Position numbers and translations under genes: made by a program. Below, one piece after another: positions 2,266-57,016 of a stretch of DNA of 57,016 nucleotides; the stretch's first letter is position 1, and every line of letters begins with the position of its first letter. The notes beneath the pieces are model-generated. The model saw nothing but the letters and a program-made list of their open reading frames with translations, was not told the origin of the DNA and made no database searches. The stretch is from an uncultured bacterium (GTDB lineage Bacteria > Omnitrophota > Omnitrophia > Omnitrophales > Aquincolibacteriaceae), in contig CAYRBY010000003.1 in assembly GCA_964422635.1 (NCBI GenBank), positions 1 to 57,016 of the forward strand, given 5' to 3'.

Positions 2266-2295
2266 AGAAATTCCTCCTTGCACCAAGGTGCTCTT

Positions 2296-28621: not shown

Positions 28622-29388
28622 GCACGATGGTGGAACTCAAAGAAGTACGGAAAGATTACGGAAAAAAAACGGCGGTTGCGGGGCTTGACCTCGTAGTCCC
28701 CAAAGGAGAACTTTTTGTCCTGCTCGGGCCCAACGGCGCGGGGAAAACATCCACGCTTAAAATGCTTGTCGGTCTGCTCCGCATGACTGCCGGCTCGATC
28801 AAAATCGGCAGCTTTGACATTGCCAAGGAATCTGACAAAGCAAAAAGTCTGATCAGCTTTGTTCCGGACATCCCCTATGTTTACGAAAAGCTCACGCCCC
28901 GCGAGCTTCTCCGCTTCACGGGCCAGCTCCGCAGCCTCGACAGGCAGACCCTTGAAGAACGAAGCGATGAACTTCTCCGTTTTTTCTCCCTCGACCATGT
29001 CCGGGACGTTCTTCTCGAAGAGTTTTCACACGGGATGCGCCAAAAGGCCATTCTTGCGTCCGCTCTTCTGCATAATCCCGAGCTGTTGATTCTTGATGAA
29101 CCCATGGTCGGACTGGATCCCATGAGCATCAAAAGCTTCAAGGATCTTTTAAAAAGAAAATGCGCTGAAGGCATGACGATCATTTTTTCAACACACACCC
29201 TTCCCCTTGCTCAGGAACTCGCCGACCGGATCGCCATAATGCATCAAGGCCAGCTCGTGGCCCTTGGAACGCTCGAAGACCTTCAAAAGAAATTCGGCAC
29301 ACGGGAGAATCTGGAAGCCATGTTTCTTAGGCTGGTCGAAAAGGAAGAGGCCCCGGGTGCCGCTAAACAAAAACTCATCCGGTCATGA
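28618..29388 (+). CDS. ABC transporter ATP-binding protein
   Basis: Walker A GPNGAGKTST, a degenerate signature FSHGMRQK, and Walker B LLILDEP. There is a 4-nt start/stop overlap with both neighbours. Confidence 0.9.
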   Translation: MSTMVELKEVRKDYGKKTAVAGLDLVVPKGELFVLLGPNGAGKTSTLKMLVGLLRMTAGSIKIGSFDIAKESDKAKSLISFVPDIPYVYEKLTPRELLRFTGQLRSLDRQTLEERSDELLRFFSLDHVRDVLLEEFSHGMRQKAILASALLHNPELLILDEPMVGLDPMSIKSFKDLLKRKCAEGMTIIFSTHTLPLAQELADRIAIMHQGQLVALGTLEDLQKKFGTRENLEAMFLRLVEKEEAPGAAKQKLIRS

Positions 29389-31040: not shown

Positions 31041-31062
31041 TTCCATTTTTTGGGGATCCATT

Positions 31063-45100: not shown

Positions 45101-48100
45101 TCATTTTGAGAAGACTTTCCAACACAGTCACTCCATCTTCCGTTTCCGTCAGGAGCTGGATTCCCTTCTGCTCCGCAACGCGTCCAATCATTGAGAGAAA
45201 AATCGCATTGGGGTTCTCGGTGAAACCAAAATCTTTTTGGGTTTTAACAAGTGCCGAATTTTTATAGTCCCAAAGGTTTTTGAGGAACTCTTCGTCTGAA
45301 TAGGCATCCATCAAGGGAGGCAATTCGAGCGCCTTACGGGCCTCTTCACCTTTTTTCCAGAACGTCTTTCTCGCCGAGGCTTCATCAATGCCGTTGCTGA
45401 TTCCAAACAAAATGTCTTTCAGCGGATTCAGGATATTATCAAGACCCTCCCCCGCCTCCCGCGTCAGCATTTGCTCGGCGTAGGGGCGGCTGACAGTAAG
45501 AATCGAACGGTTTACGTGTTCCATGGCGCTTGAAGTAATGTTGAGGAACCGGTCATCGTTGGGATCGGCAACATCTTTATAAAAATCGTGGTTGAGTCCC
45601 AGAAGCGGCCAAAGATCCAACCCATACTGATTCGTAAAGATTCGGCCCTGATAATCGCGTCCGTAATTGTGAATCATGTGAACCGTCCCCACATCCTTGA
45701 GCAGCGGATCTTGCGAGTATCGGGGGTCCCGCTGAAGAAATGTCGGAATTAAACCGGTAACCCAGTCATTGGAGATGATGAGCTGCGGATCGACACCGAG
45801 CGCCCTGTTTTGAACTACTTCAAGAGCGGCACGGGATAGGAAGACAGCGCGCCGTAATTCTTCCGAAGACGGCACTTTCGCATACAGTTTGTCGGCAAGC
45901 CGGGGATGTCTCAGAAAGAGGTATCGGACCCCTTCAGCTTTGGCCTCATACACACGGCTTTGGACCGTTCTTTGAAAGGTGCGGATTTTTTCATCCGTCA
46001 AGCCGGTCATGTGTGTACCCGAATCATACATCGGGCCAAATGTCATTCCGATCTCGGCGACAGGATCAGCTTTAATGGGCACCCTTTCACCGCTCTCGGT
46101 CATGAACCCCTTTTCAATCAAAGCAGACGCGGATTCATGTTTCTTGCCCTGATTATCTTCATACAGCGGCGTAATGACCGTAACGGATACGCCGCTCTCT
46201 GACAAAGCCTTGGCAAGGCCTTCTATAACTTTGGCCAGCCCTCCGGCAATCGCATGAGGACCTTCCGGAGCTACAAAAACAATTTCTCCAATACCGAGAG
46301 TTTCCAGGGCGTGCAAAGCGGGCAGCGCTCTTTCTTTGAAGAACGGATTCCACACTTTGCTGTCTTCCTTAAGACGGGTATGAATCTTTGAGAGCGCCTC
46401 GCGGAAACGGGGAACATCCTTAACTGCCTCGTAAACAATCTTTCCCATCCCTCGCATTTCCTCTTCGGTGACAAGGCGGTGAATCGTTGAGAGAAAACTA
46501 TCGTAGGGATTCGCATCAATAAGGCTCTGGCGGATTTCCTGAATGGCTTCCTGCTTTTTAAGATTACGCCGGAGGTCTTCAAGGACTGTTTTTGGCGGGA
46601 GATCGATCCTCATGACAGCATCATCACTCCGATTTTTTCCCTGCCACACCCGTTCACCTGTTTCGCGGTTTTGGGCATAGGCCGTCACGCCAAACTCACC
46701 GATCCGTCCGGGTTGAATCACTTTGCTTGCCTTGTAAATTCCTCCTCCGAGATCCTCAATGTCCCAATTAAGGATTTCGTGGTCCGTCCAATCCAACGGA
46801 CCTTGCGTATATTCTCCCCAATGAAAAAACATCTCTGATTTTTCAAGCGTTGCGGCGTCTGTCCTGAAAGTAATTTCAACCTTGGCGGAATCTCCGGACA
46901 CAGTCACAACAGGACGGGATGTAAATTGAATCGCTTCGGAATACGGTTTCTCGGACGAGCGCAGCTCTGAGCGTATTCCCATCTCTTTGTCAAAAACTTC
47001 AATGAGAATACGCCACCGCTCAAACTCACGGACCGAACTCTGTTTCAGACTCGTCCGGACCTCCTCTGCAAATCCCAGATCCACTTGCCGGAGAAGTTTC
47101 GTCATCGCCCCCTGAACATCAACATAGCTGCCCGTTTCAAAAGTGCGGAGCGCGTCATCAATATCAGACTGTACGGCCAATGCGTATCCGGGTGTATAGC
47201 TCAAGGTTTGGGCAGCCGGATCAAAGCGAATGTCGCCCGAATCATCTAAAGAAACAGCCTCTCTGAAAGTCGACAGAATCTCAGGGTCGCCAAGAACGTT
47301 TTGAAAAGTGTCCAGCAGCTCACTGTTTTCAGTTATCTCTGCCAAACCGGCCACTTTTGCCCGTTTCTCGGCCGGCAGCTTCCAGGTAAAGTCCCCCTCC
47401 GAGATCCGGCGGACAAGGAGCTTTAAAGTCTTAACATCTTCAGAGGTTTCGATATCCAATTTTCCAATCGCATTCAGAAACGCACGATCAAGACTCTCTG
47501 TCTCTGTGCTTGTTCTGAGCTCCGAACGCTGAGCTGGTTTCACGTTTGCAGAGCCGGCAAGGGCAAGACTGCTGTAGAATGTATCCCGGCTCTTTTCAAC
47601 AGCCTGAATGACATATTCATCTTTCGGATCCAGGTAGGCGGAACCTCTCAAATAACTGACAATAGAAGCATTCGCTTTCGTAAGGCTCAAAATCTCGGCG
47701 TCCGCAGGGCCGCGCAAATCAACATATACGGGCTTCATCCATTTTTTCAGCAAATCAATGGCTGAAAATTTCAAACCAACCTTTTGTCCTGGCCTTAACA
47801 CCTCTCTGAGCCTTGAACGAAACGGGAAAGAAACTCCGTTTTCCGTTTCCGGAGATTTCCTCCATGTTTCGGCAGGCTCAAGATCGCCCGTTCTTGAATC
47901 TTTAGAATAAAGCCAGGGTTCGGTGAGATAAGAATCTTCGTCGCCATAACCAAAAGTACCGCTGGGATTGTCATAAAGGAAATCAAAAAAGCCATTTTGA
48001 ACAAGCACTAAATTCGCCAGATCATAATCATAAGCCTCAATGGAAACATTCCAGCTCTCTGCCCAGACCTGAAAAGATCCAATTCCTTCTTTTGACAGAA

Positions 48101-51100
48101 TTTCCTGATGGTGCGATTCGTAATATTTTTTTAGCCCATAATAAACAATCATTCCGAGCGTATAAGGCTCTTCACCGCTTGAAACACCGATGCTTTTTAA
48201 GGTAACGGCTTTGTCCCCTGCCCGCATTTTCTCTTCAATGAGCTGGTCCAGAAACTTTATAGTTGCAATCTGATCAAATCGGAAAAAAGCGGTTGTTGCC
48301 CTTCCAAAATCAGCAGTTTTCGAAAAAGCCCGGAGGACGTCAGCTGCGAAGGCGCTGATTTCGGCAGGTTTAGCGGACAGATTTTCTTCCAGGTAGGCTC
48401 TGAAAGAGGATTGTCCGGAAGCCTGGATACGTGCCTGGATCATACCTTCAAAGAACTGTGCATACTCATAAGGAAGTTTATCCGCGCGGATTGCCTGAAA
48501 AACACTGGCGGCCTGCGCACTTTTCTCCGGCGAAAGCTTTTCATACACGAGCTTCAGAAATTGCTGTTTTAGCGCCGTCTCATCGAAAACCCCCGTCAGC
48601 AGAGTTTGGAGCTCGGACCGGAAAGAATCGGTCTCAACACTCCGGAGTTCCGAACGTGCCGCATAGGTAAGGAGAAGAATCTCTCGGGAACTGTCATAAA
48701 GTTTCCCGGAAAAGATTGCGCCTTCGATCCCCGGAGAAAGGATGGCCTCATGAAGTTCTGCATCTGTTATCTGATCAATAGAAGATACATGCAGGACTGC
48801 GATAACCGGTTGATCTGAAGCATCACGGCCTGCGATCACGGCATGCTGCATACCCTGATGCTCAAAGAAGCCACGGTACTGAAGGTCTGAAATACTAACG
48901 CCTGCGATTTGTGCGCTGCGGTTATCTTCCGCCAGACGGATAAGGTAGGCCGCAGATCCAAACGCTAATAAATTTTCGTACATGGCCCGGCGCCACAAAA
49001 GCTTGGCATCTGAAGATTCCGTTGTTCTCAAAACAACGTCTTCTCCCAGAACCGGCACGCCTGCAAGAATATGCCCGGAGGATATAACCAGCGGCGCAGA
49101 GAGTTTCAGCTGATAAGCAATCCCATGTTCGGATTTCACCATAAGCGGTGCCTGCGGCGAAGTGCTTTCATTTGTAATTCCGTAAAGAAAACTATCTGAG
49201 ACCTCAAGATTGAAAGCTCCACGCATGCCCGAAACAACGGAATTCTTAATAACACCTGTCGAACCGGGCAAAACTTCAGAAGCTGTAATGATGGAATTCT
49301 GGACCTCAACCTGCGTCCCGGGCAATGTTCCTGTAAATAGTTCCGGCACTCCCCAGAACTGCCGCGCCAAACGACCTTCGGCTGTATCCTGAAGAAGAAC
49401 AAGGATGTTCCGTCTGAAGATTCCTTCCGTCGTACCTTCCTCAATTCCTACATTCCCGAAATCCCACCAAAGAGACTTGGCTCCAGCATTAATGACCTTC
49501 ATGAAGGGCTGAGAAGAGTTTTTCCGTGAGCTCAGATAAAGGCTGAGTACGCGCTCCGTAAACTCCGGCTGATCAAGCCTTTCTTTCGCAAGAAATTTTT
49601 TCAAAGATTCTGCATTCTTGAATTGCGAAACATCAGCGGCAGCATTCTTAAGAACAAACTCCAAGCGAGTGAGAGGGATCCACCAATCCCCGTCGGTATC
49701 AGCCCGGTTCTTTGACTGTTCCAGGGGATTTTCCTCACTCAGCTCCTGCCGGTAAGAACGCATCATGCTGTCCCAGAAACGGCGGTCCACCGTAAAAGAT
49801 CCCAGGCTTTTGCCCATTCCGGAAACCTGGCTGTGCGCAGCTATGAACTCCTGGGCTTCCTGCACTGTTTTTGGTTTCTGCATGAGCCGTGCAGCCGTCC
49901 ACACCCCCGGCCCCTGCGCTTCAAGTGCAATCAACCCGTATTTATTGATAATGTCTTCGTACGGAAACTGCCCCACCAATGCCAAAATCTCGACAGGAGA
50001 ATCGCTCGGACTTTGAAGCTCCTGGAGCGGCACCGTCGGCACAAACACCTGATCTCCCCAAAACACCATGACGCGGCCAGGACGGTTCTTGGCAAAAATA
50101 GCGCTTTGAAAAATGGTCGACTCAAGAAGCGTCATCGGCACTTGACTTCCTTCTTTGTTCAGATAGCGGGGCATTGTGATACGGCTTTTAGAACCGTATT
50201 CGGAACCCGTAATCGGCCAAACACGGCTTCCAAAACCTGCCGTATGATAAATCGCGATGGTGGCTTCCCTTCCCTTTTCACGCCTAACTTTGTCCATCAG
50301 TGATTTCCAGCTGATCCCAGCCTGTTCTTTACTTTCCTGCCGGGCGCTTTGGTAGGCCAGAAGACTGCCCAGTCCGTTTCCGGGAGGAGAACCAGCACCG
50401 TAACTTTCCAGGACTGAAAACACCGTCGTATCTTTTCCGATAACCTGTCCGCGCATGCTTTCAAGTCTCTGCTTCCAATAACGCCGTTCGCTTTCCTGCG
50501 CCGAAACGACGATCACAATGTCGGGACCTTCGGAGTTTTCAACAGCGTTGTACATGGCCTGAATGTTTTGCTGTGCAAACGCCTGCTCCTCCAAACTCAG
50601 TCCGGCAGAGTCCGTGGCTCTCAGCTCTGAACGCGGCAACGCACCAGCTTGCGTTTGCTGAGGGACTTTTGCGCTGTCAGGAAGTGACACGGCCGAAGGC
50701 TTCCATTTAAACTCTGAAGAGGCGGAATCCGGCCGCCGGCCTTCCACCGCCCGGCTAAAACCAATATCTGACGAGGACAAAACCGCGCTGATGGTAGAGT
50801 TATTCGGAAGCAAGGCTTCAAGGTTCGGTTTTGCAGAAAATGTAAGAGCCGGCGATGAGGCGGTTTCAGGAACCTCGACATCCAAGACCTGGGATAACAC
50901 GGGATGGCTTTTAAACGCTGCTCTGACACCATTCAAAGAGTCGGAAGTCAGTCCCTTTTCCTTCATCCACAAAGGCAGTGCGACCTCGACAGCTTCTTTA
51001 AAAAGAAGCGCTTCCTGTTTGGTCAGAAAAGGGTTGGCATTTTTGAAATAGATTTTAAGGTCTGCGTTTTCTCCTCCCATGACCCGGGCATATCTTTCGC

Positions 51101-52802
51101 CGCGGTCAATCTCTCCAACGCGGGGCATCACAGAGGCAAAGGACAACTTTCTTTCTCTCAGGACATCCTGAATTCCCTGAGAGTGAAACCCTCCGCTGAC
51201 AATCACAAGAACAGGCCGCGAATCCGGGGTTTCTTTTTTCGAAAACACTTCGCGGCCAGGCTTGTTCATTTCCTCCCGCACAAAGCTCAGGGCATTTGAA
51301 ACCAAAGCTTCGTCACGCTCCCGGGCCTGCTGGTAAAAGAAAAATGCACGCCGGGTCAGCTCGGTCAATTTCGCAAGATCATCTTGATCTAAAACACCTT
51401 TGAGCAGCACCTCAAGATCCGGCTTTTGAGAATCCAGGAGCTCAAACTCCTGACGCGTCATCTCAAGATACAAAAGTTTCTGGAGGCGCTCATAATTGCG
51501 CACCCTCTCGACCCATTCCTTTTCTGCCGGGCCTGCAGCCAAGCTGTTGAGAATACCGTTTTCAAGCCGGTCCATTTCATCGAACAACCCTTGGACATCC
51601 AGTTCAGACTGAAAAACAACAGCCTTCATGGCAGACTTAAAAGACTGGGCTGTCTTTTCGTCTGCGGCTTTAAAGATCCCCTTGATCTCAAGTTCTTCGA
51701 GAATCCGTCTTGGAGAAAGTTCCTGCTTTTCAGCAGCTGGGTATCTCGATAGATCTTCTGCACTTAAAAAACCCTGGCGGTTCGCCAGATCTACCAGCGC
51801 AGAAAGAATTTCTTTGTTCTGAGATGAGCTCGAAAGAATATTCAGGATCTGCTTCCAGCTTTGAACAACTGCTTCGCTGCGAAGATTCGCTTTTACTTTC
51901 TTGAGTTGAAGCAATCTTGCAAAGTTGGGGAATCGCAGCTGCTCTATAGTGTCATCCAGATCGACATGCAAAGTCTGAAGGCTTTGGGCCTTGAGAGCAT
52001 CTGCGTAAACGCTCAAATCGCCGCTGCCTGCGTCTTTCCGGCGTATTCCAAATTGCCCATGCCTGCGCTTTTCCCGCTCCTTATAGAATCGCACCAGTTC
52101 AGGATTCAGTGTCTGCGTCATCGCGCTTTGCAGAGCCTCTTTGCCCTTTTCAAGGACCTCGGATACCCAGGGACGGACATTAAGCAAAGTCCGGTATGAT
52201 TCTAAATTCTCGCGGTAAAGCGGTGTTGTCTCCACCCCTTGAATTTTTACAGCTCGTAAGGTTCCAGTCTCCCGTGTCTCTGTTTGCTTCTGATACTGAG
52301 ACCACGCAAAAAGTTCAACCCCGGAGACTTCCCCCTTTTCGAACAAATCCTGGACAACTGCTTCGCCGGCGGCGGAAAGCTCCGGGAAAAAGTCAAAATA
52401 CTCAGGATGCAAATTGCCGCGGGCACCTTCTACAGCGATATAAAGATCAGAGTTGCGGGCTGCTTGGTTTTCAGCGAGAAACGTAAGGATTTCCTGAATG
52501 TGTTTTTGAGCATCGGGGTTAGCGTGAGCATCTTGGAGATGAATGACCCTGGGAGTTTCCGCACTTCCAGCTCCCTCTTCAATACTCTGAACAGCGCCCG
52601 CTGTTTCAGGCAGATTCTTGAGAAGTGCTGACAAAGCCCCTTTTTCTTCATAGGCAGGGCTGCGCGAAACCGCTGCGGGCATATCACCGGCATACGCTTG
52701 ACGGACAGTCCCCGGCCCCGTTGTCTCAGAACAGAGAAAGACAATGAGCAAAGGCCAAGCAATGAGCCGGGCCCACCCGGTTTTGATTTTGAACAAATTC
52801 AT
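39135..52802 (-). CDS. giant modular protein (4,555 aa) with eight RSELR-marked module junctions
   Basis: Single uninterrupted frame. The ATG at 52802 is preceded by GGAG. See the sub-features for modules. Confidence 0.9.
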   Translation of the reverse strand: MNLFKIKTGWARLIAWPLLIVFLCSETTGPGTVRQAYAGDMPAAVSRSPAYEEKGALSALLKNLPETAGAVQSIEEGAGSAETPRVIHLQDAHANPDAQKHIQEILTFLAENQAARNSDLYIAVEGARGNLHPEYFDFFPELSAAGEAVVQDLFEKGEVSGVELFAWSQYQKQTETRETGTLRAVKIQGVETTPLYRENLESYRTLLNVRPWVSEVLEKGKEALQSAMTQTLNPELVRFYKEREKRRHGQFGIRRKDAGSGDLSVYADALKAQSLQTLHVDLDDTIEQLRFPNFARLLQLKKVKANLRSEAVVQSWKQILNILSSSSQNKEILSALVDLANRQGFLSAEDLSRYPAAEKQELSPRRILEELEIKGIFKAADEKTAQSFKSAMKAVVFQSELDVQGLFDEMDRLENGILNSLAAGPAEKEWVERVRNYERLQKLLYLEMTRQEFELLDSQKPDLEVLLKGVLDQDDLAKLTELTRRAFFFYQQARERDEALVSNALSFVREEMNKPGREVFSKKETPDSRPVLVIVSGGFHSQGIQDVLRERKLSFASVMPRVGEIDRGERYARVMGGENADLKIYFKNANPFLTKQEALLFKEAVEVALPLWMKEKGLTSDSLNGVRAAFKSHPVLSQVLDVEVPETASSPALTFSAKPNLEALLPNNSTISAVLSSSDIGFSRAVEGRRPDSASSEFKWKPSAVSLPDSAKVPQQTQAGALPRSELRATDSAGLSLEEQAFAQQNIQAMYNAVENSEGPDIVIVVSAQESERRYWKQRLESMRGQVIGKDTTVFSVLESYGAGSPPGNGLGSLLAYQSARQESKEQAGISWKSLMDKVRREKGREATIAIYHTAGFGSRVWPITGSEYGSKSRITMPRYLNKEGSQVPMTLLESTIFQSAIFAKNRPGRVMVFWGDQVFVPTVPLQELQSPSDSPVEILALVGQFPYEDIINKYGLIALEAQGPGVWTAARLMQKPKTVQEAQEFIAAHSQVSGMGKSLGSFTVDRRFWDSMMRSYRQELSEENPLEQSKNRADTDGDWWIPLTRLEFVLKNAAADVSQFKNAESLKKFLAKERLDQPEFTERVLSLYLSSRKNSSQPFMKVINAGAKSLWWDFGNVGIEEGTTEGIFRRNILVLLQDTAEGRLARQFWGVPELFTGTLPGTQVEVQNSIITASEVLPGSTGVIKNSVVSGMRGAFNLEVSDSFLYGITNESTSPQAPLMVKSEHGIAYQLKLSAPLVISSGHILAGVPVLGEDVVLRTTESSDAKLLWRRAMYENLLAFGSAAYLIRLAEDNRSAQIAGVSISDLQYRGFFEHQGMQHAVIAGRDASDQPVIAVLHVSSIDQITDAELHEAILSPGIEGAIFSGKLYDSSREILLLTYAARSELRSVETDSFRSELQTLLTGVFDETALKQQFLKLVYEKLSPEKSAQAASVFQAIRADKLPYEYAQFFEGMIQARIQASGQSSFRAYLEENLSAKPAEISAFAADVLRAFSKTADFGRATTAFFRFDQIATIKFLDQLIEEKMRAGDKAVTLKSIGVSSGEEPYTLGMIVYYGLKKYYESHHQEILSKEGIGSFQVWAESWNVSIEAYDYDLANLVLVQNGFFDFLYDNPSGTFGYGDEDSYLTEPWLYSKDSRTGDLEPAETWRKSPETENGVSFPFRSRLREVLRPGQKVGLKFSAIDLLKKWMKPVYVDLRGPADAEILSLTKANASIVSYLRGSAYLDPKDEYVIQAVEKSRDTFYSSLALAGSANVKPAQRSELRTSTETESLDRAFLNAIGKLDIETSEDVKTLKLLVRRISEGDFTWKLPAEKRAKVAGLAEITENSELLDTFQNVLGDPEILSTFREAVSLDDSGDIRFDPAAQTLSYTPGYALAVQSDIDDALRTFETGSYVDVQGAMTKLLRQVDLGFAEEVRTSLKQSSVREFERWRILIEVFDKEMGIRSELRSSEKPYSEAIQFTSRPVVTVSGDSAKVEITFRTDAATLEKSEMFFHWGEYTQGPLDWTDHEILNWDIEDLGGGIYKASKVIQPGRIGEFGVTAYAQNRETGERVWQGKNRSDDAVMRIDLPPKTVLEDLRRNLKKQEAIQEIRQSLIDANPYDSFLSTIHRLVTEEEMRGMGKIVYEAVKDVPRFREALSKIHTRLKEDSKVWNPFFKERALPALHALETLGIGEIVFVAPEGPHAIAGGLAKVIEGLAKALSESGVSVTVITPLYEDNQGKKHESASALIEKGFMTESGERVPIKADPVAEIGMTFGPMYDSGTHMTGLTDEKIRTFQRTVQSRVYEAKAEGVRYLFLRHPRLADKLYAKVPSSEELRRAVFLSRAALEVVQNRALGVDPQLIISNDWVTGLIPTFLQRDPRYSQDPLLKDVGTVHMIHNYGRDYQGRIFTNQYGLDLWPLLGLNHDFYKDVADPNDDRFLNITSSAMEHVNRSILTVSRPYAEQMLTREAGEGLDNILNPLKDILFGISNGIDEASARKTFWKKGEEARKALELPPLMDAYSDEEFLKNLWDYKNSALVKTQKDFGFTENPNAIFLSMIGRVAEQKGIQLLTETEDGVTVLESLLKMNPEVQIFLGGPVAEGDGTAERLRDLTRELEGRYPGRIRGEYTFIPGATTLQVMLASRFFLMPSRYEPGGITQLESLASGTPVVARNVGGIAATLINYFDHPDHGNGFLFTDFTGAALRGTLAAAFDAAARDPSLLKTLSNRAANAQNDWHDRIPQYLSLLQLGAGVIRPSEAAFTTDYAYLTDRIDTLNNLRPRNRSELRSEEDNPYKSEENVTRGFAQVDEMHGGRIRASLNRRIAAGDKPRVLLIGIGRGVAPADMLREYGDKIELYSTAKEDLLFSPEQLASFWEGKVSAAETEAIIKTIRDRYVISNAEKDLGAFDSQSFDVIIITQTVMQYIENKPRLVDRLSAKLALKGEFMTDFDIFSIKDSVTGKSVDVKSFFESLGPNYEIYGITLEGKQAPTSLLAGLHFTRSFEQINEIPLDATANSNVYHSRRSELRAEEQPNPYGLEENVIRNFAFLDEMHGGRVTKAITDRIASGQKPRVLLLGVGRGVVPAELIRTYGDQAEIYSGAFEDLLFSNEGLSQILGIDTGEAGTIMVSVRQRFALMDLEQNLGAFENESFDVIVMTQAVMEYMRNIPGTVGMLSRHLKVGGELITDLDIMSIKDEQQKKVDIKSFFESLSPDYEIYGITINGKQVPHSFFAGLRFTRRAEGLPEIPLNPTKSSKAYTVRSELRSEETKSPQNVRLNGVSPEMLKVEAGELVFWRPSQRQMNTSLKRPYDDDKVVVQKIHNELETLDTLWMQVMGELQEKGYLPQALDVVELMIRRAMDLIRTQEIKAEIALRTVKDEMLAAAKEESGDDLDLTMASGIVDKRLLPALENREELVYVESGLDEEERKKLFINRERDQVLVKVFEIILRLPYGLHISPEDYGEDEKDRVKQLIDLERKIATGRRVMLISDLLPDILKIVEQGKRAQFAINQVIKNKIEPGLDRLKKMVEDSRKRGGDTLVGSRLIKVFEEQRSLLEGIRDEFDTYDFIYDSSDLQAERDRKKQAELERFEAVYKDTLNFFPAPSERLRTFIAEFRTQVMYEIRERGRTLDYGTAKFFSQKGSEQYRDLPDEQLDFLMRFYNVSQYGIVKRGGDKNLIVFAEKIRHEADFSELMMRNKGRGKVVSIATLKRFAPDDAAGRVPHWFIFSKDQGIVPIEALDFEDRKMDFRELKEGDFVLVDGKKGIAVVNPSAEAQRDMIERGKVYKYLDAYFLPRVSLPALVNGRPFYFWADESRLDYLKRDGDQPRFQKFGARGIGLLRLEQLMGEMDRAGIEFDEMRLSLAIEEMLLPFSDPEAPLTVRLYDVQGDKRPKFFVQGKTEEQIESILKTHSNIRFYLDERGEFRNQREFGKMQIKAIYRAYLRARKDNLQILLPNLLKVEEVGALKKLFEEARKELIRELEEEALVQTEAAVVRRHGWVTDIDALEAEGLEKGLDWFRKQLLSKAEMKPHEELFGKESDADFSKVAGSDFGDKITQRLSKIRFGYMFEEVSAVEQRMDIMKAVLEQHQDSEAKPFFGIGTNDLQKSVLESRDEGSDEMNKLHPGLVKAIADLEGSARELGLHLTVEGQWGGSARMLFAAMALEIYHGRKMQLVAPTNKIPELLEMIRMTDSQDLEHVFDLGTSYKPASMKMLIDRMEAGDLPELDEMNLVATMLQDRIEAKIVASADFQRFRTLKERQELVGRSELRLAATPDISSTQEWKRTLSETVSPRFALRSPGLFGPDVQASVVNVSRDLGGVYASKQIADRLPAQVAVDDDREGAAELPREQAAQRWVERQVMDDAGLFERAGVSDPALQKMMSEISGLPVRSPEDQGAAGLSAVVHVQMPKVPENLAGFLPVLAVVASVNGALHLNMASLNEEGAGKFEKQILSLAAGKGIQLKRGQLQVRGGMGASVFATVPHSKLAAAEHHALLGEEDVFSSFPKRRGLNLFSLDPAAMSDPGLFASTVITVLQAMALGKQPEDYFHVLNPRSLFPQNFQAVVQAVSTYLAAQARIAAAA
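39138..40073 (-). other. C-terminal tail domain shared by the three large proteins (aa 4244-4555)
   Basis: Starts RSELR-LAATPD. Ends ...VLQAMALGKQPEDYFHVLNPRSLFPQNFQAVVQAVSTYLAAQARIAAAA, which aligns by eye with the tails at 10798-11859 and 52961-53857. Confidence 0.6.
40074..40088 (-). other. RSELR junction motif (4,555-aa protein, copy 8, aa 4239-4243)
   Basis: Coding strand cgt tcg gag ctt cgc. Context ELVG-RSELR-LAATPD. Confidence 0.95.
40089..43076 (-). other. PEP-utilizing-enzyme-like module (aa 3243-4238; Enzyme I / PPDK / PEP synthase family)
   Basis: Swivel-domain-like GDFVLVDGKKGIAVVNPS. TIM-barrel motifs FGARGIGLLRLEQLM and FFGIGTNDLQKSV. I could not find the canonical phospho-His motif (G-G-x-T-S-H) or the catalytic Cys context. 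Confidence 0.55.
43077..43091 (-). other. RSELR junction motif (4,555-aa protein, copy 7, aa 3238-3242)
   Basis: Coding strand cgc tcc gag ctg cga. Context AYTV-RSELR-SEETKSPQ. Confidence 0.95.
43092..43784 (-). other. class-I methyltransferase-like module, second copy (aa 3007-3237)
   Basis: PRVLLLGVGRGVVPAEL (a GxGxG-type motif I) and FDVIVMTQAVMEYM. This is a paralogue of the preceding module. Confidence 0.45.
43785..43799 (-). other. RSELR junction motif (4,555-aa protein, copy 6, aa 3002-3006)
   Basis: Coding strand cgt tct gaa ttg cgg. Context YHSR-RSELR-AEEQPNPY. Confidence 0.95.
43800..44501 (-). other. class-I methyltransferase-like module, first copy (aa 2768-3001)
   Basis: PRVLLIGIGRGVAPADM and FDVIIITQTVMQYI. 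It begins SEEDNPY...EENV.R.FA..DEMHGGR, as its paralogue does. Confidence 0.45.
44502..44516 (-). other. RSELR junction motif (4,555-aa protein, copy 5, aa 2763-2767)
   Basis: Coding strand cgc tcg gaa ttg aga. Context RPRN-RSELR-SEEDNPY. Confidence 0.95.
44517..46958 (-). other. glycogen/starch-synthase-like GT5 module with an N-terminal beta-sandwich-like region (aa 1949-2762)
   Basis: IVFVAPEGPHAIAGGLAKVIEGLAKALSESGVSVTVITPLYE (the GlgA KxGGL-type motif region), SMIGRVAEQKGIQLL, and PSRYEPGGITQLESLASGTPVVARNVGGI. The N-terminal ~120 aa (EITFRTD...MFFHWGEY...IYKASKV) resemble a carbohydrate-binding-type sandwich, with low confidence. Confidence 0.7.
46959..46973 (-). other. RSELR junction motif (4,555-aa protein, copy 4, aa 1944-1948)
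   Basis: Coding strand cgc tca gag ctg cgc. Context EMGI-RSELR-SSEKPY. Confidence 0.95.
46974..47513 (-). other. small module of unknown function (aa 1764-1943)
   Basis: Bounded by RSELR copies 3 and 4. I recognise no motif. Confidence 0.4.
47514..47528 (-). other. RSELR junction motif (4,555-aa protein, copy 3, aa 1759-1763)
   Basis: Coding strand cgt tcg gag ctc aga. Context KPAQ-RSELR-TSTETE. Confidence 0.95.
47529..48641 (-). other. CheR-like SAM-dependent methyltransferase module (aa 1388-1758)
   Basis: LKSIGVSSGEEPYTLGMIVY matches the CheR-type xGCSxGEEPYSxAM motif. It is followed by SIEAYDYDLANLVLVQNGFF, compare atDid...l..A..G.Y. Confidence 0.55.
48642..48656 (-). other. RSELR junction motif (4,555-aa protein, copy 2, aa 1383-1387)
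   Basis: Coding strand cgt tcg gaa ctc cgg. Context TYAA-RSELR-SVETDS. A degenerate echo, RSELQ, lies 8 aa downstream. Confidence 0.95.
48657..50618 (-). other. NDP-sugar pyrophosphorylase-like module (fucokinase / GDP-fucose pyrophosphorylase N-domain-like) plus beta-helix-like region (aa 729-1382)
   Basis: DIVIVVSAQESERRYWKQRL...GNGLGSLLAY and IYHTAGFGSRVWPITGSEYGSKSRITMP resemble the motifs I recall for that family (IVLTA..Y..QL ... GSGGATL ... HsGG.SkRlP). WWDFGNVG is followed by short repeats such as VQNSIITASEVLPGSTGVIKNSVVSG. Confidence 0.4.
50619..50633 (-). other. RSELR junction motif (4,555-aa protein, copy 1, aa 724-728)
   Basis: Coding strand cgt tca gag ctg aga. Context GALP-RSELR-ATDSAG. 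Confidence 0.95.
50634..52802 (-). other. signal/anchor plus N-terminal domain shared with the 3,019-aa protein (aa 1-723)
   Basis: Hydrophobic N-terminus WARLIAWPLLIVFLCSE with an AYA-G site. IHLQDAHANPDAQKHIQEILTFLAEN (QDAH at nt 52524-52535), VEGARG, and VIVSGGFHSQGIQDVLRERKLSFASVMPRV (GGFH at nt 51183-51194). Confidence 0.7.
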
Positions 52803-52855
52803 ATCGCTCCGCGATGGTTTTACGCGTGTTGGGGCCTTTTTAAAAGTCTTACAGA

Positions 52856-52884
52856 AAGATACCCTACGAAACGGCTTGGGTCAA
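52856..52884 (-). promoter_or_regulatory. candidate sigma70-type promoter in the gap between the two large ORFs
   Basis: The minus strand reads TTGACC-17 nt-TATCTT, about 55 nt upstream of the 4,555-aa ORF start. A second candidate, TTGCAA-17-TATGTT, lies further upstream. These are sequence matches only. Confidence 0.25.
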
Positions 52885-52957
52885 ACCAGGGGGGAAACTT
52901 TATCTGCTTAAAACATAAGGGGTTGTAAAAAACTTTGCAATCCGGAAAAGACGTCTT

Positions 52958-55900
52958 TTAAGCTTGGGTCGCCAGATGGTTGATCACCTGAATCATCCGG
53001 GAAACATTCTCAACAAGTTCATCCAGATTAATATCGAATTTTTTAAGAAGATCGTCCATTCGAACAACATCATATTGATCACTCAGCTGCCGCAAAAGCG
53101 CTGAGGCCACAAGAATAGCCGTATTTCGATCCAGGCGCTCGTTAAAAATTCTCTGCATACGCGGAATATAGCCGAGCTTGTCCAGCCAATCCATGCGTTC
53201 GCCTACAACAGCCGAATCCAGCTCCTTGTTTTCAGAGTAGAGCTGCTTCACGGCCCGGACGTAACTGGCAGGGCTTCCATCTGTAGATACGAACTTGAAT
53301 TGTTCGATCACCCTGGAAGCAGAAATCTTGAGCTCGTCCTGACGGGCAGCGACGCGTGAGGCCTGAGACCTGGCCTGCTGAGGCGAACCATTCACAAGAA
53401 AAGCAAAAAGGTTTCCTCTGTCTGCTGCCGCCAAAACAACAGCTACGCGGAAAAGTTCATCACTGGATTGATCCTGCTCTAAAGGCAGGACAATCTGGCC
53501 CGGAGTTTTTGCGTGATCCAGGAGCCAGCTATATTTTCCCAAAGCAGCGCGGGCCTCTTTGAGAACGACGGGTTCCTCTTCAGCAGTCTCTGGCGGAGAG
53601 GAAAGCCTCAGGCGAACGTATTCCAAAGAAGCAGGATCTTCCGAACGGATCAGTTCATCGGAGACAAACGCTGCAGCAACCGCTCCAGCCACCTGATCTT
53701 TAGGGATAAAATCAGGGTGATGTTCCAAGAATTGCCCCACATCAACCGACTCAGGAGCCGGAAGAGATAAGACTTTTGCGTGGAAATCTGCAGTCGTTGC
53801 CGGATTGACTCCATCGGCCTGAACAAGACTTTCAAAGACAGAACTTGTTTCTGCGAGCCGAAGCTCCGAACGGATCGAACCCAAAGGAGGTGTCCGGCGT
53901 CCGGGGCCGATAAGATTAATATTTAAATCTGCTGTCAGCTTGGGCGCCCGGGAATAGAGCGTGTTCCGGGTATCAATCAAGAGCTGCCCTGAAAATTTTG
54001 CATAATCCAGCTTTTTGTATTCATCCCAATCCGTAATCAGAAGGGCGGCATCTGCAGGCTTGCTGCCGGCAGGAGTTTCATAAGACAGAGCCTCTTCAGC
54101 TTGATTGACAAACACAACTCTGTTTGTCGCTTCATATCTTTCCTTGAAAAATATTTCACGGAAGTAAAACTCTTTGATAACCGAAAGATCCAGACGCTTA
54201 TCTCTGAGCAGATTTTGAAAAGATTGAATCAGGGGGCGGGTCAAAAACTGCGCACTCTGGTCATCCTCCCACGGATCCTTCGGGCTGCGCGCATCAAAAT
54301 AGTTTCCGTAGCTTTTCCGAAAAGCCTCTTCACTAAGAGTCAGTTTATGGTCCGCAACCATTCTTTCCCTTAATTGCCTTTGAAAAACCGGATTAAAACG
54401 AAGGCGGGCAAATAGCTGCCGCTGCGCCGATTGGTCCTCTAAAGCACCCGATTTCAGATAGCCATCAAAGGCCTTTTCAAAATCGCCGTCATACTTGAAG
54501 TGCTTATAAAGTTCGCCAAGATAATTTGAGATAATCGCCTCTTTGCGCGGCGCGTCGGGTGTTCTGAAAATAGGGTCATCAATTCTGACCTGCTGGACTT
54601 CAAGTTTTAGAAGTTCATAAAGTACATGCGCACTCGGCGCTTCTCTCATATCGTCTGTTTCAGCTTTAAAGGCCATTCCAAGAAGCGCGATCACCTTGCC
54701 CTGGAGAATCGCTTTGGTTCCAATCGCCTTGGCGCCGCGGAGCTGCTCAATAAGCCTCTTAACATCCGCTGTTTTAAAATATTGATTCAATTGGTCCGCA
54801 AGAACAATCATGAGAAGCGAACGGCCTGCTTGTTCGTCTGAAAGATAATTCACGGCGCGGACGTCCTTAGGGAAACAGGAACCGCCGTAACCGCAGCCCT
54901 CATTCAGGAAGGCGTTGCCGCCGACCCGTTGATCTTTCCGCAGGCGGGGAGCAATCTCACGGAAGTTCGAGCCCTCGATTTCAAGAGCAGCATCCTGCGC
55001 CATCACATTTGCAGTTGTAATGGAAACAGCCAGAAAAGCGTTCGCAGCGTACTTGATCAATGTGGATGTGGCAGTATCAGTCAACAGAACCGTGTGCGGG
55101 GTGCGCAGCATGAGCGGGTACCAAAGCTCCAACAGGTCTTTCTCGACCCGTTTCCGGGCCTCCGGAGGCATAGACGAATAAAAGCCCAAAACGGTCCGGT
55201 CAAGATCGGTCGTAATATCTTTAATGGCCTGACCTTCTCTTAAAAATTCAGGGTTACTGACGAACCCGTAGTCAATCCCGGGCTTAAGCCCAAACTCTTG
55301 CTCCAGGATTTTAACAGCATCTTCAAAAACCCTCGGCGTAACCGTCGATTTAATTACGATTGTCTTGAAGGCCGCTTCCCTTCCGGACTCAGCGGCCTGC
55401 CGCTTGATAATCGCCGCGATATCACGCATGGCTCCGTTAATATAAGAGGGGTCTTGGGCACCGTTGTCTTGCTGGGGTGTCCCGACGGCCAGATAAACGA
55501 TGCTCGCTTCGCGAACACCTTTTTCGTATTCTTCAGGCGATGCCTGAAACCGAATCCTTCCTGACTCCTTACCTTTGATAATCAGATCGCGCAATCCGGG
55601 CTCATGAATAGGGACTTCCGTCGCTTGCGAGTTAAGCGCATCCATGGCCCGCTTTCTCTGCGGAATGTCCAAAACAGTGACATCATTTCCAAGATCCGCA
55701 AGATTCGCGCCCGTAGTCAGACCCACATAGCCTCCGCCGATCACAGCAACCCTTTTCTGAGTGACTGGAACAGCCTTCGCCTCACGCTGATCCAGTTCAG
55801 GCGTTCCAAAGATGTCTTCCAGTTTCTTCTTGCGCGCGTCATCGGTTTCCAAAGATAAAAGATATGCCTCATATTCTCCAATGGCTTTTGCCGCAAGCTG

Positions 55901-57016
55901 CGGACTCCCTCGCTCATAATCATCCGCAATCACATGACTGTCGGCTAACGTATAATCGGCCTGCCCGTCCAGAACGGGCCGGCCGACACTGACGTAATGG
56001 ATACCGGCGGTTTTCAAACTTTCAAGCGTGTAAAGAGTTTCACCGTTGGCACGAAGCCCAAAAAGGTTAATCCCATCAAACAGATACTTTGCTCCGAGAC
56101 TCTGTTTAAGCTTGGGCAAATCGAGTTTCTTTAAATCCGTATTGGCGTCGGTAGGAATGACTACAAAATCCGCACTGGCTGAGGCCGTGTAAATATCAAG
56201 ATCGGGTGTCCCCTCGTCGACTCCATAAAAACGAACTCGACGGTCTTTGAGAATTTTGGCCATAGAATCATGCTCATTAGCCTTAATTCTATCGAGCCAC
56301 TCTTTTAACGATTGGCGGGCAAGCGGATCAGCGACATAAAACTCTGTAACACCTGAGGAAACCAGCTGGCGGATAATACGCTTGGCCGGCGATTTGGTCA
56401 CCCGGGTGTCCCCTTCGCGATACCCCACACCAATGAGCGCTGCCTTGCGCCCTTTCAGGTCTCCGACATAGGCGGATATTTTGTCTGAAAAATCCTGCAG
56501 ATTGCGCTTATTGATATCGGTAATTGTTTCCAACTCAAAAAGAAAGTGAAGAATAGGCGGGAGTTTATCAAGAATGTCTTTAACGGTTAGATCGCTTTCG
56601 GGATCCTCGGCGATTTCCCGGAGCATGGCAACGCTGTCAGAAAGCCGCCGCTCAATAATTTCAAGTTTCTTTTGCTTCGTGTCCTGCTTTTCGCGTTCCG
56701 TGAAAAAGTCAGGCCGGGCTTCAAGAGAAGCAAGAACCTCTTCCAGGCGCTCCTCCCTGACCCATTCCAAAAATTGAGCGAGACGTCCGCCAAACCCCAA
56801 AGAAGGATTCGTGAAAAGTTTCCGGATGCGTTTGTCTAGCCCCGCGCCGTAAGCCACAGCACTGAGATCTGCGCCATAGCGCTCAGATACTTTGGCCAAA
56901 TCATTAAAGTGCGCGAGTTTTGCAGCCAGATAGAGAAACAAATCATTCTTGGTCTGCTCCGCGCTCGGAGCACTCATAAAGTCAGGGTTGTCAAAATTAG
57001 CCCTGAGCATTTGGAG
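52958..57016 (-). CDS. large modular protein (at least 1,350 aa, 5-prime end outside the window): tandem UDP-glucose-dehydrogenase-like modules, RSELR, shared tail
   Basis: The frame is open to the window edge (codons LQ precede the first Met at 57010). The first residues already lie in the middle of a UDPGDH-type central domain, so the true start must be upstream of the window. Confidence 0.85.
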   Translation of the reverse strand, partial: LQMLRANFDNPDFMSAPSAEQTKNDLFLYLAAKLAHFNDLAKVSERYGADLSAVAYGAGLDKRIRKLFTNPSLGFGGRLAQFLEWVREERLEEVLASLEARPDFFTEREKQDTKQKKLEIIERRLSDSVAMLREIAEDPESDLTVKDILDKLPPILHFLFELETITDINKRNLQDFSDKISAYVGDLKGRKAALIGVGYREGDTRVTKSPAKRIIRQLVSSGVTEFYVADPLARQSLKEWLDRIKANEHDSMAKILKDRRVRFYGVDEGTPDLDIYTASASADFVVIPTDANTDLKKLDLPKLKQSLGAKYLFDGINLFGLRANGETLYTLESLKTAGIHYVSVGRPVLDGQADYTLADSHVIADDYERGSPQLAAKAIGEYEAYLLSLETDDARKKKLEDIFGTPELDQREAKAVPVTQKRVAVIGGGYVGLTTGANLADLGNDVTVLDIPQRKRAMDALNSQATEVPIHEPGLRDLIIKGKESGRIRFQASPEEYEKGVREASIVYLAVGTPQQDNGAQDPSYINGAMRDIAAIIKRQAAESGREAAFKTIVIKSTVTPRVFEDAVKILEQEFGLKPGIDYGFVSNPEFLREGQAIKDITTDLDRTVLGFYSSMPPEARKRVEKDLLELWYPLMLRTPHTVLLTDTATSTLIKYAANAFLAVSITTANVMAQDAALEIEGSNFREIAPRLRKDQRVGGNAFLNEGCGYGGSCFPKDVRAVNYLSDEQAGRSLLMIVLADQLNQYFKTADVKRLIEQLRGAKAIGTKAILQGKVIALLGMAFKAETDDMREAPSAHVLYELLKLEVQQVRIDDPIFRTPDAPRKEAIISNYLGELYKHFKYDGDFEKAFDGYLKSGALEDQSAQRQLFARLRFNPVFQRQLRERMVADHKLTLSEEAFRKSYGNYFDARSPKDPWEDDQSAQFLTRPLIQSFQNLLRDKRLDLSVIKEFYFREIFFKERYEATNRVVFVNQAEEALSYETPAGSKPADAALLITDWDEYKKLDYAKFSGQLLIDTRNTLYSRAPKLTADLNINLIGPGRRTPPLGSIRSELRLAETSSVFESLVQADGVNPATTADFHAKVLSLPAPESVDVGQFLEHHPDFIPKDQVAGAVAAAFVSDELIRSEDPASLEYVRLRLSSPPETAEEEPVVLKEARAALGKYSWLLDHAKTPGQIVLPLEQDQSSDELFRVAVVLAAADRGNLFAFLVNGSPQQARSQASRVAARQDELKISASRVIEQFKFVSTDGSPASYVRAVKQLYSENKELDSAVVGERMDWLDKLGYIPRMQRIFNERLDRNTAILVASALLRQLSDQYDVVRMDDLLKKFDINLDELVENVSRMIQVINHLATQA
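52961..53857 (-). other. C-terminal tail domain shared by the three large proteins (aa 1052-1350)
   Basis: Starts RSELR-LAETSS, compare RSELR-LAATPD in the 4,555-aa protein. Ends ...ILVASALLRQLSDQYDVVRMDDLLKKFDINLDELVENVSRMIQVINHLATQA. Confidence 0.5.
53858..53872 (-). other. RSELR junction motif (1,350-aa protein, aa 1047-1051)
   Basis: Coding strand cgt tcg gag ctt cgg. Context LGSI-RSELR-LAETSS. Confidence 0.95.
53873..55756 (-). other. complete UDP-glucose/GDP-mannose dehydrogenase-like module with a large insertion (aa 419-1046)
   Basis: Rossmann motif VAVIGGGYVGLTTGANLADLGNDVTVLDI. Catalytic Cys motif GYGGSCFPKDV. C-terminal domain VIALLGMAFKAETDDMREAPS. An insertion of roughly 170 aa lies between DDPIF and VVFVNQAEEAL. 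Confidence 0.75.
55976..57016 (-). other. partial, apparently degenerate UDPGDH-like module (aa 1 to ~345; boundaries approximate)
   Basis: Central-domain-like LYLAAKLAHFNDLAKVSERYGADLSAVAYGAGLDKRI. The catalytic position reads GFGGRLAQF where GGSCFPKD is expected. The C-terminal domain is AALIGVGYREGDTRVTKSPAKRI...YVADP. Confidence 0.5.

Follow-up and report, generated by a model that had tools for sequence, protein, structure and literature searches.

The stretch of DNA analyzed here (the window) comprises 57,016 nucleotides (nt) of contig CAYRBY010000003.1, assembly GCA_964422635.1, from an uncultured bacterium of the phylum Omnitrophota. Three very long open reading frames (ORFs) lie on its minus strand, and the one at the window edge, at positions 52958–57016, is the subject of this work. 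It consists of 1,352 open codons from position 57016 to the stop codon at 52958–52960 and has no stop at the edge, as had been seen in a first-pass annotation of the same DNA. The ORF is the distal part (the 3' 59%), cut by the window edge, of a gene for a protein with a head, a cargo, and a tail, in which the joints between the parts carry the pentapeptide RSELR. The other two ORFs encode giant paralogues. Giant B (39135–52802, 4,555 amino acids (aa)) has a head, eight RSELR sites, a tail, and a cargo containing, among others, GT5/GT1 glycogen-synthase-like, methyltransferase, and phosphoenolpyruvate (PEP)-utilizing modules. Giant C (10795–19854, 3,019 aa; P0022 in our protein library) has a head, six RSELR sites, a 354-aa terminal segment, and a cargo that includes a HemK-like methyltransferase. 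Our best reading, to which we assign a probability of roughly 55%, is that such proteins are secreted polyproteins that are cut at a motif of the form R-S-E-x-R, thereby releasing their modules.

The missing 5' part of the gene is available from other assemblies. A protein search with the window ORF returned a public gene call of 2,274 aa (P0001), which is 100% identical by BLASTP, as well as nine further full-length relatives with 38–82% identity over the whole alignment; the orthologues are 2,237–2,328 aa long with intact frames. The names given by the sources of the matches are "hypothetical protein" or "nucleotide sugar dehydrogenase, partial". The gene for P0001 occurs in two independent Logan assemblies, L001 and L002, whose DNA is 99.2% identical to the window over 5,511 nt and 99.4% over 5,468 nt, respectively, across the spacer and into giant B. 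Window position 57016 corresponds to position 3151 of L001, and the ORF runs 922 codons further upstream in L001, L002, and the 83%-identical genome GCA_964434115.1 (L003), so that the window holds residues 923–2274 of P0001. An in-frame ATG is found 13 codons 5' of the P0001 call and gives the N-terminus MVIISARKCAAITLFFFGVQTAASA, followed directly by APVE (L001 346 onwards), in agreement with the 83%-identical orthologue; the public call begins with MFFFG, at a point within the hydrophobic core of the putative signal peptide (L001 346–384). The true length is therefore probably 2,287 aa, in which numbering the window part would be residues 936–2287. Upstream of the gene are a hairpin with a T-run and an AT-rich spacer of ~300 nt.

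The full order of the protein is thus a signal-peptide-like segment, a head of ~600 aa, a disordered linker, RSELR, a cassette of 1,212 aa, a second RSELR, and a tail of 299 aa. The N-terminal segment (MVIISARKCAAITLFFFGVQTAASA before APVE) is hydrophobic and, read by eye, has the A-x-A layout of a signal peptide, which recurs in the orthologues. The first-pass annotation had predicted that the missing part would carry the QDAH/GGFH domain of the giants and further copies of RSELR. The ~600-aa head indeed contains HVQDAH and TGGFH, and one more RSELR is present at residue 754; just outside the window the frame continues for the 922 codons mentioned above, where an in-frame stop and an ordinary UDP-glucose dehydrogenase (UDPGDH) start might have been found. 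Because the ORF continues upstream into a homologous head with a second RSELR, the protein can be placed in the family of the giants, and head, tail, and motif together assign all three to one paralogous family. The earlier view that the UDPGDH protein is part of the same punctuated system as its neighbors was essentially right. One detail of it did not hold, as Pfam finds no pyrophosphorylase module in the neighboring giant at E ≤ 0.01.

The cargo consists of a degenerate UDPGDH copy fused to an intact one. The first module, of which the window holds the central and uridine diphosphate (UDP)-binding domains (55775–57016, minus strand), matches the UDPGDH central domain at residues ~18–78 of the window ORF (PF00984, 4.3e-10) and the UDP-binding domain at residues ~190–320 (PF03720, 6.9e-7), and PDB entry 3gg2 at 9.7e-15; the first-pass annotation had correctly located the first residues of the ORF inside such a central domain. 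The catalytic GGSC is replaced by GGRL at 56774–56797, where the alignment to 3gg2 sets GGR against GGS, and QPDFSYRSE stands in place of NPEFLxEG. In the part of the module beyond the window, the Gly-rich loop for nicotinamide adenine dinucleotide (NAD) is absent, with KADIQD where GxGxxG is expected. Judged by these replacements, module 1 is a catalytically dead UDPGDH paralogue, that is, a pseudo-enzyme with a homologous fold.

The second module (53873–55774, minus strand) is an intact enzyme of the UDP-glucose/GDP-mannose (GDP, guanosine diphosphate) dehydrogenase family according to Pfam, TIGR03026, and the alignment to PDB entry 2y0e. All three Pfam domains are present in order (PF03721, 1.2e-39; PF00984, 1.6e-29; PF03720, 6.6e-24), the TIGR03026 score is 321.7 bits with a cut-off of 189.8, and the best solved relative is Burkholderia BceC (2y0e, 1.9e-60). 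The NAD-binding motif GGGYVGL is found at 55718–55738, NPEFLREG at 55232–55255, KYAANA (as IKYAANAF) at 55034–55057, and the catalytic-Cys motif GGSCFPKD at 54863–54886; the latter three all align to BceC and every catalytic motif is kept, which bears out the complete second module described earlier. Module 2 thus resembles the UDP-glucose 6-dehydrogenases Ugd, TuaD, and BceC in its domain order and catalytic motifs, but differs from them in residing within a 2,287-aa secreted-type protein, behind a dead copy, and in having an insertion of ~165 aa in the UDP-binding domain, where the 2y0e alignment is interrupted between residues 403 and 569. It scores below all equivalog cut-offs (TuaD, 308 vs 700; AglM, 264 vs 670). 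On these profile scores its membership of the UDP-glucose/GDP-mannose dehydrogenase family is secure, and UDP-glucose is most likely its substrate. Because no RSELR separates the two modules, we regard them as a single cassette. A more distant UDPGDH match in the ENA (P0012, 880 aa) contains the intein Pfam domains PF14528 and PF14890; it is an intein-interrupted UDPGDH unrelated to the head-cargo-tail family.

The metagenomic origin of the DNA and the degenerate first copy could suggest an assembly chimera or a decaying pseudogene. We consider this extremely improbable, as the same gene is found in three independent assemblies (L001, L002, and L003), the frame is intact over 2,237–2,328 aa at 38–82% identity, and the degenerate copy is itself conserved among the orthologues, with many invariant columns in residues 879–1270.

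The RSELR at the joint between cargo and tail is encoded at 53858–53872 (minus strand; residue 1971 of P0001) and is followed by 299 aa, both as the first-pass annotation had it. With the copy at residue 754, the protein has the motif at exactly its head/cargo and cargo/tail joints, and we propose that it is a processing site. The three long minus-strand ORFs contain one, eight, and six copies in the window, with 0.0033, 0.014, and 0.010 expected from composition. These 15 copies are encoded by many combinations of CGT/CGC/CGG/AGG, TCG/TCA/TCC/TCT, GAG/GAA, CTT/CTG/CTC/TTG, and CGG/CGA/AGA/CGC. Since the synonymous codons vary in this way, selection acts on RSELR at the peptide level, and an origin at the DNA or RNA level was rejected on the same grounds. 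When all six frames are considered, the sole RSELR outside the family ORFs is at 52444 on the plus strand, in a non-coding antisense frame of giant B and right after a stop; we take it as a chance occurrence.

An alignment of ten sequences, with identities down to 38%, shows that the sites read RSELR, RAELR, RSEQR, RNELR, RNEMR, or RSEVR, all of which fit R-[SAN]-E-x-R. The cargo/tail site conforms to R-[SN]-E-[LMV]-R in all ten, and the head/cargo site has no recognizable alignment in the two most distant sequences. Both sites are flanked by stretches of 20 residues that are gapped and unconserved. In the AlphaFold2 (AF2) model of the head, residues 635–753, which lead up to the first site, have a predicted local distance difference test (pLDDT) score below 50, and in the model of the tail the motif has a pLDDT of ~58, compared to above 93 for the core. 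The motif is therefore a conserved island in flexible linkers. In giant B, the adjacent RSELR-bounded segments B5 and B6 (239 and 236 aa; residues 2763–3237, window 43091–44516) are 54% identical end to end (E 9e-90), i.e. a tandem duplicate whose unit extends exactly from RSELR to RSELR; methyltransferase-type Pfam matches fall within these segments.

With only the window at hand, one might have proposed an ordinary UDPGDH gene, or a simple fusion of two copies, unrelated to the giants and with its RSELR due to chance, since there is just one RSELR inside the window and the tails are dissimilar by BLAST. The chance expectation for the window ORF given above, the 922 upstream codons with a second RSELR and a head homologous to those of both giants, and the conservation of the whole architecture in nine orthologues leave this explanation a vanishingly small probability. 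Both it and the chimera or pseudogene are refuted by the full-length gene, the homologous head, and the independent assemblies.

The head of P0001 is 30% identical to that of giant B over 630 aa (E 1.7e-77) and 25% identical to that of giant C (E 7e-18). Across its ~600 aa, the elements H-x-Q-D-A-H, E-G, R-D, and G-G-F-H are invariant, and the invariant or near-invariant residues H79, H84, E118, E184, R475, and H515 follow strands. The AF2 model of the head, with an overall pLDDT of 71.8 and mostly 75–94 in the core, contains strands at residues 76–82, 113–117, 179–182, 506–512, and 530–535 between helices, as well as a helical insert of ~310 aa. In the order of the sequence, predicted strands are followed by the invariant H84, E118, E184, and H515. 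The head is a new domain without a known family.

The tail (52961–53857, minus strand; 299 aa) is likewise a new domain. Its N-terminal part is helical and is followed by a five-stranded Rossmann-like α/β core, after which a long C-terminal helix ends in HLATQA-COOH; its AF2 model has a pLDDT of 88.2. The first-pass annotation held that this tail is shared with the 4,555-aa protein. Pairwise BLASTP and hhalign comparisons of the tails in the window give nothing significant beyond RSELRLA.T, and a word-indexed protein search with the tail alone gives no match, so that a direct similarity could not be upheld. Remote homology via intermediates is nonetheless found, as an iterated hmmsearch seeded by the orthologue tails retrieved the tail of giant B in round 3 (E 7e-10), with a match that spans profile positions 1–303 and starts at the RSELR of giant B. 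None of 244 shuffled or reversed decoys was recruited over eight rounds, and the tail of giant C was never linked by the iterated profile search. In the family as a whole, the C-terminus most often lies 280–320 aa behind the last motif, with a sharp peak (61 of 111 proteins), and the C-terminal residue is Ala in 119 of 149 proteins, with AA, SA, or QA as the last two residues; the ATQA end of the present tail fits the family pattern [AST]-[AQS]-A. The Ala end follows an amphipathic helix, reading HLATQA here (52961–52978) and ...RIAAAA and ...AVASAA in the two giants. Such termini are reminiscent of the non-polar C-terminal tags that tail-specific or Clp proteases recognize, or of a sorting signal at the C-terminus.

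In order to delineate the family, a HMMER profile of seven heads was searched against 1.84 billion cluster representatives, giving 8,411 matching proteins (clusters) at E ≤ 1e-3 and 3,714 at E ≤ 1e-30. Nearly all of the 150 matches listed have the beginning of the head alignment among their first ~60 residues, and the lengths range from fragments to 7,840 aa. A scan of one genome per GTDB species confirmed more than 535 loci; among the loci listed, all records with a named organism are from Candidatus Omnitrophota/Omnitrophica, and several metagenome-assembled genomes have three or more family loci. A second same-strand ORF of >2,700 aa is situated directly upstream of the head-containing giant at L013, L018, L026, L037, L060, and L065, and tandem arrays of family genes, as at 39135–57016, appear to be the rule. 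Some relatives consist of a head and an HLATQA-type tail with little or no cargo (P0013, 1,274 aa; P0021, 1,087 aa; P0023, 1,086 aa), and in this light the UDPGDH pair behaves like a cassette that was inserted. A search of 8 million papers and preprints for the motif variants RSELR, RSEVR, RAEVR, and RSEMR and for Omnitrophota polyproteins gave nothing relevant. This appears to be a large, undescribed family whose head and tail domains are new and whose punctuation code is explicit.

Motif statistics were obtained for 155 family proteins with a total of 428 thousand amino acids (kaa). The commonest 5-mers are RSELR (153), RSEVR (136), RAEVR (79), RSEMR (65), and RSEAR (62), which rank above the head's own invariant motifs. 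R[SA]ExR occurs 686 times in these proteins, compared to 25–43 times in shuffled sequences (about 30 expected). At 82 loci, ORFs of at least 900 aa have 12.7 motifs per 10 kaa, compared to 0.73 in neighboring ORFs, where most of the few matches are in truncated giants at contig ends. The flanks have small residues at positions −1 to −3 and are Glu-rich at +1 to +8, and the median spacing is 272 aa. Recognizable domains are found between the sites: in P0031 a CsrA (1473–1521) between sites 1467 and 1606 and an FHA domain (1070–1121) between sites 1001 and 1136; in P0042 a receiver domain (1803–1882) between sites 1780 and 1925; and in P0054, which has three receiver stretches by Pfam, sites at 2890, 3040, and 3190, i.e. 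in steps of 150 residues, with a receiver (2912–3033) between the first two. GT5/GT1, transaldolase, and PEP-utilizing modules are bracketed by sites in the same manner.

Individual proteins prefer one variant of the motif: RSELR accounts for 12 of 12 sites in P0035, 11 of 11 in P0040, and 15 of 15 in the window, RSEVR for 10 of 11 in P0057, and RSESR for 9 of 9 in P0120. Overall, the fraction of same-variant pairs is 0.329, compared to 0.128 in 500 permutations (maximum 0.152). In P0146, R-S-E-x-R is missing and A-[AS]-S-L-G is present instead at 692, 1817, 2337, 2821, 3149, and 4383, of which 692 is the usual end of the head and 4383 precedes the C-terminus by 296 aa; P0110 carries six copies of A-x-S-L-G (630, 1140, 2193, 3677, 4823, and 5968). 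In this minority lineage, A-x-S-L-G looks like an alternative punctuation code. As an unrelated pentapeptide is used at the same architectural positions, the motif would be a recognition site read by a co-evolving factor rather than a structural requirement of the linker.

These observations bear on whether the chain is cut at all. It could remain intact as one membrane-tethered multi-enzyme scaffold, in which R-S-E-x-R is a linker or docking element that binds the head, the tail, or a partner. Cleavage is known only by inference, the head has no detectable homology to proteases, head and tail could be assembly domains, and giant uncleaved multidomain proteins are described from Omnitrophota (10.1101/2023.11.21.568195). 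However, a conserved, charged pentapeptide within linkers that are disordered and show no other conservation is what an enzyme recognition site typically looks like, the preference of each protein for one variant suggests a co-evolving reader, and A-x-S-L-G replaces the motif at the same positions in one lineage. Moreover, it is hard to picture how obligate homodimers, or a CsrA of ~50 aa that begins six residues after a site, would be active within a 2,860-aa chain. We therefore consider an uncut scaffold rather unlikely, and cleavage at the R-S-E-x-R motif fairly probable from the sequence patterns.

According to the polyprotein reading, the protein would be exported by the Sec pathway and cut at each R-S-E-x-R into the head, the 1,212-aa cassette, and the tail, with expected sizes of ~80, 135, and 33 kDa. 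The released cassette would be a single-chain, pseudo-dimeric, NAD-dependent UDP-glucose 6-dehydrogenase that converts UDP-glucose to UDP-glucuronate. Bacterial UDPGDHs act as dimers through their central domain, and because they need a dimer partner, the dead copy could fulfil this role; fused in a 1:1 ratio, it would render the cassette active without having to find a second chain. A polyprotein protease can reside in the same chain, and one tentative candidate for the cutter is the head, acting on its own chain, with His, Glu, and His at predicted strand ends as in TIKI-type hydrolases; a dedicated protease encoded elsewhere in the genome would be an alternative. The TIKI active site is made up of two His and two Glu on a parallel sheet, and the superfamily includes a sequence-specific endopeptidase, the MARTX effector RRSP (PMC6254334). 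Like the TIKI/TraB/erythromycin-esterase/ChaN superfamily, the head model seems to have a parallel β-sheet, flanking helices, and a large helical insert, and the His of QDAH, the Glu of LEG, and the His of GGFH follow predicted strands in the 2His/2Glu order of RRSP and Bcr135; members of the superfamily are also often extracytoplasmic. In contrast to them, the head has no significant sequence or fold match, and the likeness is one of motif order only. No conserved neighboring gene, such as a protease or a transporter, was found around 79 genome loci beyond truncated heads, which fits a self-contained system.

Several observations weigh against this reading. The processing is deduced from sequence alone, the signal peptide was judged by eye, and P0078, P0085, and P0147 show no recurring motif. 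As for the head, the Asp of QDAH is Asn in some family members; seven heads gave no match in Pfam (E ≤ 10), and NCBIfam likewise gave none for the head; PDB profile searches found nothing, whether the helical insert of the head was included or left out; and hhalign comparisons of 7- and 149-sequence head profiles with the Escherichia coli TraB protein YbaP gave no support (probability 0.4% for the 149-sequence profile), with the alignment of GGFH to GALH as the sole local match of the 7-sequence profile. In Foldseek, the best TIKI-type match of the head is the erythromycin esterase EreC (6xcs), at rank 29 with an E-value of 0.97. The fold of the tail offers no functional clue, as Foldseek gives only generic Rossmann/GT-B matches with TM scores of 0.2–0.35. 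Finally, NAD- and UDP-sugar-dependent enzymes outside the cytoplasm are sensible only if they are delivered into another cell.

The last point raises the question of where the products would work. The proteins could be cut at the motif and yet supply the cell's own housekeeping proteins, as a kind of protein-level operon that ensures fixed stoichiometry in a streamlined genome, with the hydrophobic segment as a membrane tether only. The cargo is indeed ordinary (UDPGDH, GT5, transaldolase, PEP-utilizing enzymes, CsrA, receiver domains, and methyltransferases), the L003 orthologue resides next to rpsB-tsf-pyrH-frr, the family genes of the window are near Sua5 and ClpB, and the window also contains the carbohydrate genes otsA, otsB, and an α-amylase gene. 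Against this, 138 of 149 members have signal-peptide-like N-termini (a positive n-region, a hydrophobic core, and A-x-A) according to a crude hydrophobicity rule, and such export-type N-termini predict that the bulk of the protein is outside the cytoplasm; a single-chain dimer of a dead and a live copy suggests work at high dilution; and the many paralogues per genome have rapidly shuffled cargo. All in all, we find this alternative somewhat unlikely.

If the polyprotein is secreted as we propose, delivery of sets of enzymes and regulators into another cell by putatively host-dependent bacteria would be the most likely role, because the cargo is cytoplasmic in type (CsrA, receiver and FHA domains, sugar-nucleotide and central-carbon enzymes) and yet comes with export-type N-termini. 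This step is the weakest of the proposal, and we regard it as doubtful. The secretion of glycogen-metabolism enzymes by Chlamydia provides a loose precedent. A still more speculative extension, which we think improbable, is that the family constitutes a phylum-wide arsenal of secreted, self-processing polyproteins, in which a TIKI-like endopeptidase in the head cuts R-S-E-x-R (A-x-S-L-G in one lineage) and the cargo (UDPGDH, glycogen synthase, transaldolase, CsrA, and receiver domains, among others), released inside a partner or prey cell, re-routes its carbon metabolism and gene expression. Such a system would be MARTX-like but independently invented for interactions of bacteria with other microbes, and the window gene would be its UDP-glucuronate-producing member.

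In their logic, the MARTX toxins of Vibrio and relatives are the closest known system, being giant secreted proteins in which conserved ends flank shuffled cassettes of cytoplasm-acting enzymes separated by short sites. Cutting at those sites releases the MARTX cassettes, whereas cleavage in the Omnitrophota family is inferred. None of its parts is homologous to MARTX: Pfam scans of the P0001 segments and both giants found neither RTX or glycine-rich repeats nor Peptidase_C80, the cysteine protease domain (CPD). In addition, the putative signal is N-terminal and Sec-type rather than C-terminal and type 1, the site is R-S-E-x-R rather than Leu-X, and members of Omnitrophota carry the proteins, with metabolic enzymes and regulators of bacterial type as cargo. 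As no defining MARTX part is present, the family is not a member of that group. Next come viral polyproteins, for example those with picornavirus 3C sites, and the Porphyromonas gingipain proteinase-adhesin polyproteins RgpA/Kgp/HagA, where a recurring short site divides a product into folded modules; secretion and cleavage behind Arg or Lys are features of the gingipain group. Unlike these, the present family is cellular and chromosomal, with thousands of members, interchangeable cargo, and another motif, and it has neither a recognizable protease fold nor a type IX secretion system (T9SS) C-terminal domain.

Giant proteins of another kind, the "Archaeovorins" and dockerin-type proteins, have been described from Omnitrophota; they are longer than 30,000 aa and contain numerous transmembrane segments as well as C39/S8 peptidase, SecA-like, and carbohydrate-binding domains (West-Roberts et al. 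2023, 10.1101/2023.11.21.568195). Proteolysis of those giants was suspected, with the cleavage points stated to be unknown, and a predatory or host-dependent lifestyle was proposed for Omnitrophota (10.1101/2023.11.21.568195). The present family shares with them the phylum and the very long ORFs, but its members are 1–8 kaa long and have a head and tail of their own and an explicit punctuation motif, and it is not mentioned in that preprint. Delivery into another cell would fit the lifestyle proposed there.

The spacer between the UDPGDH gene and giant B (52803–52957) contains the promoter-like element TTGACC-17-TATCTT at 52884–52856. With the stop codon of the former gene ending at 52958 and giant B starting at 52802 on the same strand, it measures 155 nt, the gap given in the first-pass annotation. 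The 83%-identical genome has a spacer of precisely the same length (L003 16895–17049), in which both promoter-like hexamers are kept. The conservation of this spacer is beyond what would be expected and includes CCCAACACGCGTAAAACC ahead of the start codon. A terminator-like site was looked for on the coding strand of the spacer and none was found. Given a conserved promoter-like element on the one hand and no coding-strand terminator on the other, the gene may or may not be co-transcribed with the downstream giant. The gene order in GCA_964434115.1 is rpsB-tsf-pyrH-frr, ~750 nt, the orthologue (2,297 aa), 155 nt, and the orthologue of giant B. An exact look-up of giant B and Sua5 in the contig index gave no match.

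Elsewhere in the window, an otsB-like trehalose-phosphatase gene, an otsA-like gene for a GT20 trehalose-6-phosphate synthase, and an α-amylase-family gene adjoin each other at 5–3960; together with the GT5 and UDPGDH cargo, they make the window rich in sugar-storage and sugar-nucleotide functions. A plus-strand cluster at 27005–34160 comprises a transglutaminase-core protein (538 aa), an ABC ATPase, an ABC_tran_2 protein (551 aa), and two ORFs of 477 and 555 aa without a Pfam match. Transglutaminase-like cysteine proteases process some giant adhesins. Finally, a 401-aa ORF without a Pfam match is located at 9216–10421 on the minus strand, between giant C directly upstream and ClpB downstream.

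To the question of whether Omnitrophota use their very long proteins whole or in pieces, this family offers a concrete and testable answer. It has an explicit pentapeptide, 20-fold above chance, at the joints between modules, which is kept across the phylum with lineage variants as in a protease code. The window gene is a convenient test case, having two sites and one assayable cargo, and its fusion of a dead UDPGDH to a live one would be an unusual single-chain solution to the need for a dimer. The motif could also be used as a practical rule for splitting family proteins before structure prediction. If the chains stay intact, the family would still represent a new class of modular giant proteins, although a less surprising one. 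If the sites are cut, the 8,411 clusters would amount to a catalogue of pre-delimited modules, many of them without annotation, and polyproteins, which until now have been linked with viruses and a small number of toxins, would turn out to be widespread in bacteria.

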